Below are positions 60,693-62,655 of a stretch of DNA of 64,000 bases, piece after piece. The position numbers were made by a program, and so were the translations under genes. The notes below the pieces were generated by a model, which had not been told where the DNA came from, made no database searches, and was given only the letters and a program-made list of their open reading frames with translations. Positions within the stretch are counted from its first letter, which is position 1; each line of letters begins with the position of its first letter. Source of the stretch: a virus; IMG/VR virus record IMGVR_UViG_3300048088_000314, positions 26,805 through 90,804 of that record; one strand, given 5' to 3'.

Positions 60693-60745
60693 GGCCTCGT
60701 CAGATGCCGCATGACGGCATGACCGGGCAGCGCCCGGTTTCGGCC
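60693..60745 (-). ncRNA. type II hammerhead ribozyme
   Basis: ggcc GAAA ccgggc-gcu-gcccgg UC augccg-ucaug-cggcau CUGACGA ggcc. Confidence 0.9.
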
Positions 60746-60966
60746 TAACCCTCCCAACTCACGCCAAGCGCCCGCAACTCGTCGTCGCTCCGGTAGAGCG
60801 CGAACATGCAGCACTGATTGCCCGCCGCGTCGTGCGCGCCCCGCGCGGTGGGACACGGTAGCGCGATGACGCGATCCGCCACGCTCCGCAGGATGCGCCG
60901 GATTTCCTCGCTCGGGTCAGCCGCGAAGGCCGGCCCGCCACAGTCGATCTCCAATCGAAACCTCAT
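60745..60966 (-). CDS. phage hypothetical protein
   Basis: F.LEI.C...AF......EI.RIL....D..GN. Confidence 0.6.
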   Translation of the reverse strand: MRFRLEIDCGGPAFAADPSEEIRRILRSVADRVIALPCPTARGAHDAAGNQCCMFALYRSDDELRALGVSWEG

Positions 60967-60976
60967 CTCGCTCTCC

Positions 60977-61363
60977 CTAATCCGGTATCCGTTCCAGGCC
61001 GCGCAAATCGGCCTCGTAATAGAGCGCGTCGAGCGCGGGACCTGAGCCGCCTATCGGCCCGGTGATCCTGCGCACGCGCCGCCACTCGGTCCCCGTCCAG
61101 CGCACAAGCCAGACGGCCCATTGCGCGCCCTCCCAGGTGTAGGTGTAGCGGCCGTCCCGCGACATCATGCTTCCGGCCTCGATCGGCTTGCCGGCTTCGG
61201 CGCGCGTGTAGAAGTCGATGTCGAGCGCCTTGGTGCCGACCGGGCGGGCGCGATCGGCCTCGCGCTTCTCCCGTAGGCGCTTATTCGAGTCCTCTACGAT
61301 CGAACGCCAGATCGAATTGGCGATGGCTTGCTCGGCGCTCACGACTTGTGCCCGCCGTGCCAC
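60977..61363 (-). CDS. hypothetical protein
   Basis: Fits the operon. Confidence 0.45.
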   Translation of the reverse strand: MARRAQVVSAEQAIANSIWRSIVEDSNKRLREKREADRARPVGTKALDIDFYTRAEAGKPIEAGSMMSRDGRYTYTWEGAQWAVWLVRWTGTEWRRVRRITGPIGGSGPALDALYYEADLRGLERIPD

Positions 61364-61686
61364 GTCACGCCGCCGTCGTGGCTGTGATGCCCGGCGGCAA
61401 CGGACGCGCGGTTGACGGTGCGACCCGACAGCATCTCGGCGCGAGCGATGGCCGCTTTCGCACTGGCGCTGCCGGTCGCCATGATCGTGCGGTAGGCGCA
61501 GGCGTCCGTGACGCGGCTGCGCTCGTTGTCGCCCCAGCCCTGGAACGCGATAGCGCCGGTGAGCCCGACGACCGGCCGCACGGTGCCGGAAGTCAGCTTG
61601 GCGATCAGCCGCTCGATAGCGGTCTTAACCTCGGCCTTGCGCTCGGTGAGCGTCTGGTTGGGGAGGCGGCGGGTATCGCAGGGCAT
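61339..61686 (-). CDS. hypothetical protein in the AAA ATPase cluster
   Basis: AAGGAG SD after a hammerhead; MPCDT...HSHDGG.TW. Confidence 0.65.
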   Translation of the reverse strand: MPCDTRRLPNQTLTERKAEVKTAIERLIAKLTSGTVRPVVGLTGAIAFQGWGDNERSRVTDACAYRTIMATGSASAKAAIARAEMLSGRTVNRASVAAGHHSHDGGVTWHGGHKS

Positions 61687-61703
61687 TGGCAATCTCCTTG
61701 GCT

Positions 61704-61769
61704 TGGCTCGTCAGTGCGCCGGGCGCCACCCGGCACAGACGCCAGGGCAAAAGCCCCGGCGTTTCGCCA
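61704..61769 (-). ncRNA. type II hammerhead ribozyme
   Basis: uggc GAAA cgccggggc-uuuu-gcccuggcg UC ugugccggg-uggcg-cccggcgca CUGACGA gcca. Confidence 0.9.
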
Positions 61770-61773
61770 GTGT

Positions 61774-62577
61774 CTAGTCCAGGTCGAAGGCCATCACGGG
61801 CGCGAGCGGACGCGCTGTGATGGGGGGAACGCTATTCGGGGCATCCTCATAGAGGTCGATCGCCCTTCCCGTCGCCAGCGGGGCGGAAATCGGCTCCGCA
61901 TCGTCATCCGAAAGATCGAGAAAGGCGGTGCGCGCGCTGCGCAGCGTCACGAGAACCGACTTGTCGATTTCCGCTGCGCCGGTCTCGGCGGCCTTGACGA
62001 CGCGCCGGGCGAATGACCGCGCCACTTTCAGCGCCTCGGTGACGCGCTCGCTCGCGCCCTCGGTCAGCATCGAGCCGACCTCGCGCAGGCGGTTGGCGTT
62101 GTCCCGGATCGCCTCCACGTCGAGGGCTTGAACGCCGCGCTCCATGCGGTCGAGCAACTCCGCGACTTCCCCGTTGATCGCCTTCACCGCCTGAACGTCA
62201 TCGGCGGCAACGCGCCCGACGATGACGCCCACGGTGATGCGGGTGAGACTGGCGCTGTTGTTGAACTCGCGGGCGAGATCCTGAGCGGCGCCGATCGCAT
62301 CGCCAAGCTCGTTCTGCTTCGCCTCGGGGCAGAGCAGCCCAAACGTGGTGTTGGAGCAGACGCCCGTGATGAGCGACCGGCACTTGGAGCGCGCCTTGAC
62401 CGCGCGCGCGTGTTCCTCGGGGTTCTCGACGGTCTTCTCCGTCTCCCAGGACGCCACCAGGGCGCCGTAGTCGTCGCGGTGTTCCGCCTCGATCTCGGTC
62501 GACTTGTAGCGCACGTTCCCGCTGATTTGCGTCTTGAGGGCGATCAACAGGCCCGGCCGCAGGGTGCTAACTTGCAT
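61774..62577 (-). CDS. helical protein in the AAA ATPase cluster
   Basis: GAGG SD after a hammerhead; 267-aa ORF. Confidence 0.7.
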   Translation of the reverse strand: MQVSTLRPGLLIALKTQISGNVRYKSTEIEAEHRDDYGALVASWETEKTVENPEEHARAVKARSKCRSLITGVCSNTTFGLLCPEAKQNELGDAIGAAQDLAREFNNSASLTRITVGVIVGRVAADDVQAVKAINGEVAELLDRMERGVQALDVEAIRDNANRLREVGSMLTEGASERVTEALKVARSFARRVVKAAETGAAEIDKSVLVTLRSARTAFLDLSDDDAEPISAPLATGRAIDLYEDAPNSVPPITARPLAPVMAFDLD

Positions 62578-62597
62578 CGTGTTTCCTCGCTTGGTTT

Positions 62598-62655
62598 GGC
62601 CTCGTCAGGCGCCGCACTACGGCGCGACCGACTCCGCGCGGAGTCGGTTTCGGCC
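62598..62655 (-). ncRNA. type II hammerhead ribozyme whose stem III is the 16-bp palindrome
   Basis: ggcc GAAA ccgacucc-gcgc-ggagucgg UC gcgccg-uagug-cggcgc CUGACGA ggcc. Confidence 0.9.

Follow-up and report, generated by a model that had tools for sequence, protein, structure and literature searches.

Why would a phage operon carry a self-cleaving ribozyme in one gap after another between its genes? The question is raised by three type II hammerhead ribozymes that lie on one strand (minus) within 1.96 kb of the virus record IMGVR_UViG_3300048088_000314. The window analyzed here is the last 64 kb of this 90,804-bp IMG/VR record (positions 26,805 to 90,804; CheckV completeness 95%), and its source is an uncultured soil phage, not a prophage of a cultured strain. 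We consider it likely that the three elements, termed HH1, HH2 and HH3 in their order along the minus strand, are functional self-cleaving hammerheads in the intercistronic gaps of one minus-strand operon, where they split the polycistron into separate messages. In window positions, they are as follows.

62598-62655, minus strand: HH1, type II hammerhead; stem II GGCC/GGCC; stem III a 9-bp palindromic hairpin; predicted cut 3' of C62626.
61696-61769 (core 61704-61769), minus strand: HH2, type II hammerhead; stem II UGGC/GCCA; 3' tail AGCCAAGG; predicted cut 3' of C61738.
60693-60745, minus strand: HH3, type II hammerhead; stem II GGCC/GGCC; stem III of 7 bp; predicted cut 3' of C60721.

Read along the minus strand, each element consists of a 4-nt strand, GAAA, a hairpin, UC, a second hairpin, CUGACGA and a complementary 4-nt strand, with stem II open and stems I and III closed by loops. 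HH1, HH2 and HH3 each contain CGAAA, GUC and CUGACGAG. The core reads CUGACGA...GAAA...U-C17 in all three with zero deviations from the conserved core (C3 U4 G5 A6 N7 G8 A9, G12 A13 A14, an A15.1-U16.1 pair, and H17, not G, at the cut). No mispair adjoins the core: G10.1-C11.1 is present in all, and the 1.1-2.1 pair is G-C, U-A or A-U. Stem II has 4 bp, stem III 7-10 bp and stem I about 6-10 bp (6-7 bp with the loop UAGUG in HH1; 6-7 bp with the loop UCAUG in HH3). The minimum-free-energy fold of each ribozyme is the three-way junction (z = -2.9 to -3.9). The stop codon-to-ribozyme gaps, checked by eye, are 6, 4 and -1 nt for HH1, HH2 and HH3, the first G of HH3 being the last base of the upstream TAG stop. 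The ribozyme-to-ATG gaps are 20, 17 and 13 nt, with a Shine-Dalgarno (SD) sequence in between, and the 5' untranslated regions left after the cut measure 48, 51 and 41 nt. An earlier note on this DNA had claimed three hammerheads with intact cores at these positions, each filling the gap from a stop codon to the next SD and cutting at 62626/62625, 61738/61737 and 60721/60720, about 40-50 nt before the start codon. It is borne out on these points: all three are on the minus strand with a canonical core, and C17 falls at 62626, 61738 and 60721.

The gathering cut-off of the Rfam model RF02276 (Hammerhead_II, clan CL00010) is 37 bits. HH2 matches the full model (1-66) with 40.1 bits. HH1 reaches 29.2 bits, under the cut-off (E = 0.007 in 6 kb), and HH3 gives no match even at E <= 10. 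In the comparison with a type II covariance model that the earlier note had proposed, HH2 alone passes the cut-off. Rfam scans of 6 kb (E <= 10) and of the whole window (E <= 1) detected no fourth hammerhead and no twister, pistol, hatchet or hepatitis delta virus (HDV)-like ribozyme. A loose pattern of the core only found 3 sites versus 1.0 expected, which is insignificant alone. A descriptor requiring the core and three stems found exactly HH1-HH3 in the whole 90.8-kb record, all on the same strand, and gave 0 matches in 260 shuffled genomes; the signal is therefore carried by the stems. A leave-out covariance model (R2), built solely from the hammerheads of other phages (alignment A6), scored HH1, HH2 and HH3 at 49.7, 26.8 and 60.1 bits; further covariance-model scores were 68.6 bits for HH1 and 70.6 bits for HH3. 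The next best R2 match (61039-61091, 17.5 bits) lies in a coding region, lacks GAAA and CUGANGA, and was rejected. Judged by core and stems, the three elements are genuine type II hammerheads.

Relatives of the locus were gathered by alignment of homologs of the 267-amino acid (aa) protein encoded between HH1 and HH2, giving 80 viral and 6 genomic loci, and model R1 was used to search them. Hammerheads are found in 7 of about 88 loci sharing the gene module, with 1 to 8 per phage. The counts in the loci are three in L005, five in L059, six in L082 and one each in L015, L022, L049 and L085; in the whole records they are eight for L059 (100.8 kb) and two for L022. Together with the window this makes 21 hammerheads in eight phages (18 beyond the window), all on the coding strand. 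Most hammerheads of the related phages also stay under the Rfam cut-off, at 21-36 bits. A MAFFT alignment of all 15 first matches was structurally wrong, and a subset with hand-given structure was used instead. In the alignment of the 21 ribozymes, which was fitted to the model and so somewhat favors pairing, 98.6% of the pair cells hold standard pairs and double changes occur at 12 of 14 pairs. The covariation score is 0.774, compared with 0.174 for shuffled and at most 0.105 for slid controls, and 0 of 500 shuffles reach the observed value. The stems are thus different in sequence, paired and covarying, as had been claimed from the window alone.

The position of the ribozyme is also constant. 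A start codon follows about 9-26 nt past the ribozyme in 21 of 21, with an SD in between wherever the sequence was read. In 17 of 21 the upstream stop codon is no more than about 10 nt from the 5' end of the ribozyme, as counted by a script that spurious frames in GC-rich DNA can mislead. The 267-aa gene is immediately preceded by a hammerhead in the window, L005, L015, L059 and L082, and immediately followed by one in the window, L005, L082 and L085. Because L005b and L005c, which occupy the two junctions of HH1 and HH2, share their stem I sequences, common descent at those junctions is suggested.

The mechanism that we propose involves the following genes and sites. The genes around the ribozymes match PHROG phage families and are all on the minus strand.

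62662-63966, minus strand: AAA+ ATPase of 434 aa, the cistron upstream of HH1; phrog_8638, E = 3e-156.
61774-62577, minus strand: 267-aa gene, function unknown, with HH1 and HH2 on either side; phrog_11021.
60745-61686, minus strand: three-gene block between HH2 and HH3 (115 aa + 128 aa + 73 aa).
61339-61686, minus strand: 115-aa gene; phrog_11784.
60977-61363, minus strand: 128-aa gene, overlapping the 115-aa gene.
60745-60966, minus strand: 73-aa gene; phrog_9027.
60194-60679, minus strand: 161-aa gene, the first cistron past HH3; phrog_15104, match over the N-terminal 40 aa.
56457-56484, minus strand: terminator-like hairpin with U-run, the sole strong one downstream of the ribozymes on this strand.

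The transcript would run from upstream of 63966, past the record end, to the terminator-like site at 56457-56484, which is likely to be the end of the transcription unit. Promoter-like and terminator-like sites were looked for on the minus strand between the ribozymes and none was found. In a hammerhead the 2'-OH of C17 attacks its own phosphate, which leaves a 2',3'-cyclic phosphate on C17 and a 5'-OH on the next nucleotide. Each ribozyme would cut once the polymerase has completed the 3' strand of stem II, its last strand. With nothing but the 4-bp stem II to join them, the products would separate without religation. A GC-rich hairpin, stem III (7-10 bp), would then close the upstream mRNA at its 3' end. 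The downstream mRNA would carry a 5'-OH, the stem I hairpin, the core strand and four nucleotides, leaving the SD free, and its new 5' end would lie about 41-51 nt ahead of the start codon. Four messages are predicted: the ATPase, the 267-aa gene (888 nt), the three-gene block (1017 nt), and the 161-aa gene onward. Each message would have hairpin-protected ends, and the split would uncouple the messages in stability and translation. 5' hairpins stabilize mRNA, and RNase E prefers a 5'-monophosphate.

The proposal that the polycistron processes itself has a precedent: the same reading was published for prophages with this arrangement, where it was also tested in part. Perreault et al. (2011, PLoS Comput Biol, PMC3088659) described the first type II hammerheads found in nature, along with hundreds of bacterial hammerheads near prophage genes. 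In transcripts of about 2 kb, cleavage was seen for all the triple hammerheads, those of Clostridium scindens, of Azorhizobium and of Agrobacterium, in vitro as well as in E. coli. Processing of long phage transcripts into mRNAs the length of an operon or a gene was the role that these authors proposed. The serial use of hammerheads, regarded as unusual in the earlier note, is thus a known pattern. In both cases several hammerheads, including type II, flank single phage genes or short blocks; triple arrangements occur, theirs in Rhizobiales prophages (Azorhizobium and Agrobacterium); and the same mRNA-processing role was put forward, with the same side idea of circles. The window contains such a cluster, defined as at least two hammerheads on one strand within a few kb: three lie within 1.96 kb, among phage genes and on a presumed polycistron. 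It differs from the 2011 clusters in its gene module (AAA+ ATPase, phrog_11021 and phrog_11784, related to Corndog gp96-93) and in its source, an uncultured 90.8-kb record, whereas theirs are prophages of cultured strains. It also differs in that two of its three ribozymes have a 5-nt loop I and no pseudoknot tail and score under the Rfam threshold. Compared with RF02276, core and topology are alike; HH2 fits the whole length of the model, down to the AGCCAAGG tail with its complementarity to loop I, and HH1 and HH3 belong to a short-loop subclass that the model covers poorly.

Two other systems are comparable. Three type II hammerheads of Desulfovibrio vulgaris are active in vivo, as their cleavage ends were detected in cellular RNA with cyPhyRNA-seq (Olzog et al. 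2021, PMC8782182). Like those of the window they neighbor hypothetical or phage-like genes, and about 300 nt separate two of them, but organism and genes are different and operon-wide punctuation was not claimed. RiboJ is an engineered hammerhead insulator derived from a plant satellite RNA ribozyme. Placed just upstream of a ribosome-binding site, an insulator of this type strips upstream RNA context, leaves a 5' hairpin and standardizes downstream translation; the window units, unlike it, would also give the upstream fragment a protective hairpin. Further literature searches returned nothing that alters the picture given by Perreault 2011, Olzog 2021 and a 2019 review.

Several points weigh against the splitting of the polycistron as we propose it. 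The promoter of the operon lies beyond the record end. About 80 of the 88 loci have no ribozyme, and since most relatives do without it, the ribozyme benefit is dispensable. A 5'-OH may stabilize or destabilize mRNA depending on the host RNases; the 5'-OH product of Bacillus glmS is degraded by RNase J1. Finally, HH1 and HH3 have short 5-nt stem I loops and no detectable pseudoknot or tertiary contact. Stem I and stem II of type II hammerheads usually dock through a pseudoknot of loop I with nucleotides 3' of stem II. In HH2 the tail GCCA is complementary to UGGC of loop I, as read from the sequence, and this UGGC/GCCA pairing agrees with the Rfam consensus and with the six L082 copies. For HH1 and HH3, loop I was compared with the tails, 5' flanks and start regions, and just 3-4-nt matches were found, which do not recur across copies. 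Minimal hammerheads cut slowly at physiological Mg2+, and because HH1 and HH3 show no tertiary contact, these two may be slow or conditional cutters. Some active hammerheads have no predicted tertiary contact (Perreault et al. 2011, PMC3088659). The 2019 review calls the function of bacterial hammerheads largely elusive (PMC6765202).

Conditional cutting is the substance of a rival explanation, in which the ribozymes are active but gated, and cleavage reports upstream translation, Mg2+ or another factor and tunes the downstream gene. A ribosome terminating at a stop codon that abuts or overlaps the 5' strand of stem II would keep the ribozyme unfolded. The short stop-to-ribozyme gaps, both in the window and in the 17 of 21, agree with this, as does the missing loop-to-tail complementarity of HH1 and HH3, and regulated cleavage has been raised for slow phage variants (Perreault et al. 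2011, PMC3088659). However, compact phage genomes show tight spacing anyway, the gap script may pick stops of spurious frames, and no alternative pairing that hides the core was found. We consider gated cleavage rather unlikely and keep to hammerheads that split the polycistron.

The earlier note had added that segments between ribozymes could circularize. In this rival, a pair of ribozymes would cut out the segment between them, and its ligation would yield a circular or spliced RNA. The cleavage reaction of hammerheads can run backwards, and the identical stem II strands of HH1 and HH3 (GGCC/GGCC) make a chimeric hammerhead round a 1905-nt segment possible. Closure of a circle needs the stem II 5' strand of the downstream ribozyme to pair with the 3' strand of the upstream one. 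The 5' strand of HH2 (UGGC) forms only 2 of 4 pairs with the 3' strand of HH1 (GGCC), and HH3 (GGCC) only 2 of 4 with HH2 (GCCA); single-gene circles are disfavored because neighboring ribozymes have incompatible stem II strands. The sole compatible segment, from HH1 to HH3, holds HH2, the best Rfam scorer, which would re-linearize it, and a 4-bp stem II favors product release. Circular and spliced products were sought from such clusters and none was found (Perreault et al. 2011, PMC3088659). We therefore regard circles as highly improbable, and linear messages with hairpin ends as the products to be expected.

If the ribozymes separate messages, what serves this purpose in relatives that lack them? 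At the ATPase-to-267-aa junction of some ribozyme-less loci, the stop and start codons overlap. Among the longer-gap ribozyme-less junctions (19 folded), many have a GC-rich hairpin before the SD, several of them with a U-run. Seventeen long-gap ribozyme-less loci (140 kb in total) contained zero Rfam families, so no other known ribozyme class acts as a substitute there. The mycobacteriophages Corndog and Catdawg have the gene module and no Rfam ribozyme at E <= 1. In the cultured phage Corndog, the gp96-gp95 junction (L003 4040-4090), which corresponds to the HH1 slot, is occupied by a long perfect hairpin (GCCGAACAGGGCTG...CAGCCCTGTTCGG) and no ribozyme. A metagenome scan for near-identical relatives returned two distant loci only, both without hammerheads. 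Since the same junction in relatives is a plain GC hairpin or a pair of overlapping genes, the ribozyme is, by this comparison, one of several interchangeable kinds of operon punctuation, and an optional one.

Within single genomes the hammerheads carry private marks. Phage L059 (IMGVR_UViG_3300032897_000001), a complete 100.8-kb phage, has eight type II hammerheads over 7 kb of one strand (record positions 33558-40613), and the five copies that were read have an extra U between A9 and G10.1 (CUGAUGAUG), an insertion adjacent to the core. L082 (IMGVR_UViG_3300036792_000044, 1434-5219) has six hammerheads in 3.8 kb, with near-identical stem III, pseudoknot tail (AGCCA or GCCA) and SD (GATTGGAGACA); the repeated unit is therefore the ribozyme plus the ribosome-binding site. 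L082 copies b and e differ in stem III only, by compensatory changes. Such marks point to copying or homogenization inside genomes.

One part of HH1 is itself a repeated sequence. A 16-nt perfect palindrome, GACTCCGCGCGGAGTC, has 15 exact copies, and 19 at up to 2 mismatches, in the 90.8-kb record, and its 20-nt version gives 11 matches in the window versus 0.02 expected. The copies in the window, given without strand, include the following.

62630-62645, 60172-60187, 59810-59825 and 56489-56504: palindrome copies, the first forming the entire stem III of HH1; further copies at 48729, 40893, 28550, 24829, 12652 and 8237.
60170-60189: palindrome copy as a bare hairpin in the next intergenic gap, in the slot of the ribozyme (order: stop, hairpin, AAACC, SD, ATG).
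59808-59827: palindrome copy as a bare hairpin in the gap after that, directly before the SD.

The 26.8 kb of the record that precede the window contain more copies, and several of the copies fall within very long open reading frames (ORFs). An attempt to separate coding from intergenic copies by GC content at third codon positions (GC3) gave no clear split. The palindrome contains two GANTC sites (GACTC and GAGTC) and a CCGCGG center, and GANTC is the CcrM methylation motif of Alphaproteobacteria. The palindrome is probably a DNA-level site that is tolerated in any free hairpin. The sequence 'AUGACGAG' at 59827-59840, next to a palindrome copy, was considered as a decayed hammerhead and rejected, as C3 is lost and no GAAA follows the hairpin.

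Copying of this kind admits a further explanation, that the units of hammerhead and ribosome-binding site are selfish or neutral cassettes, spread by duplication or gene conversion within or between phages and tolerated because any stable intercistronic hairpin suffices. The private marks of L059 and L082 and the palindrome in stem III of HH1 are in line with it. So is the scatter of hammerhead carriers on the 267-aa protein tree, which takes 7 changes for 8 rows compared with a shuffled mean of 7.7, although this tree is poorly resolved and its well-supported branches force just 2 changes. On the other side, the core is intact in 21 of 21 and compensatory changes keep the stems paired, a sign of selection on catalysis, and the resemblance of HH1 and HH2 to L005b and L005c at the same junctions and in stem I fits vertical descent. 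We think it quite improbable that the units are selfish or neutral, and selection for cleavage between cistrons is preferred.

A tentative reading, which we judge unlikely, combines some of these elements: a compact cassette of stop, hammerhead, SD and start, used by phages of this group in place of the usual hairpin, would have been copied from junction to junction inside a genome, with cleavage gated by the ribosome that terminates on the upstream gene, since the stop codon abuts stem II. If this were true, bacterial hammerheads would be translation-coupled mRNA separators, a concrete and testable function for the class.

What hammerheads do for bacteria and phages has yet to be settled (PMC6765202), and this locus changes nothing in what is known of this kind of element. 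It goes slightly beyond the literature in the short-loop subclass missed by Rfam, the constant order of stop, ribozyme, SD and start, the patchy spread compared with hairpin-bearing relatives, and the stem III of HH1 as a copy of a genome-wide palindrome. Because the Rfam type II model misses the short-loop subclass, which is common in these soil phages, counts of phage hammerheads made at the Rfam threshold are underestimates. With three canonical ribozymes, defined cistrons and about 88 related phage loci, the locus is a clean natural test case. What cleavage adds can be asked by comparing the forms that one junction takes in these relatives: with a ribozyme, with a plain hairpin, and with overlapping genes.

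The 434-aa ATPase has the Pfam domains AAA (PF00004) and AAA_lid_3 (PF17862) and is a homolog of gp96 of mycobacteriophage Corndog. The 267-aa protein has 950 homologs, and its Corndog counterpart is gp95. From the ATPase to the 115-aa gene, the module shows about 66% DNA identity to gp96-gp93 of Corndog and relatives. The 128-aa protein gave no match in PHROG and Pfam searches. Protein relatives are found in a Bradyrhizobium genome and in alphaproteobacterial and Rhizobiales metagenome-assembled genomes, so the host is probably a soil alphaproteobacterium. A small minus-strand ORF (59895-60152), located after the 161-aa gene, starts with MKRLTIAAILSLAASVAHAQ. It looks like a signal peptide-like start followed by a Pro/Tyr/Gly-rich tail, and its product may be a small protein that is secreted, in an early-type operon whose other products are cytoplasmic.

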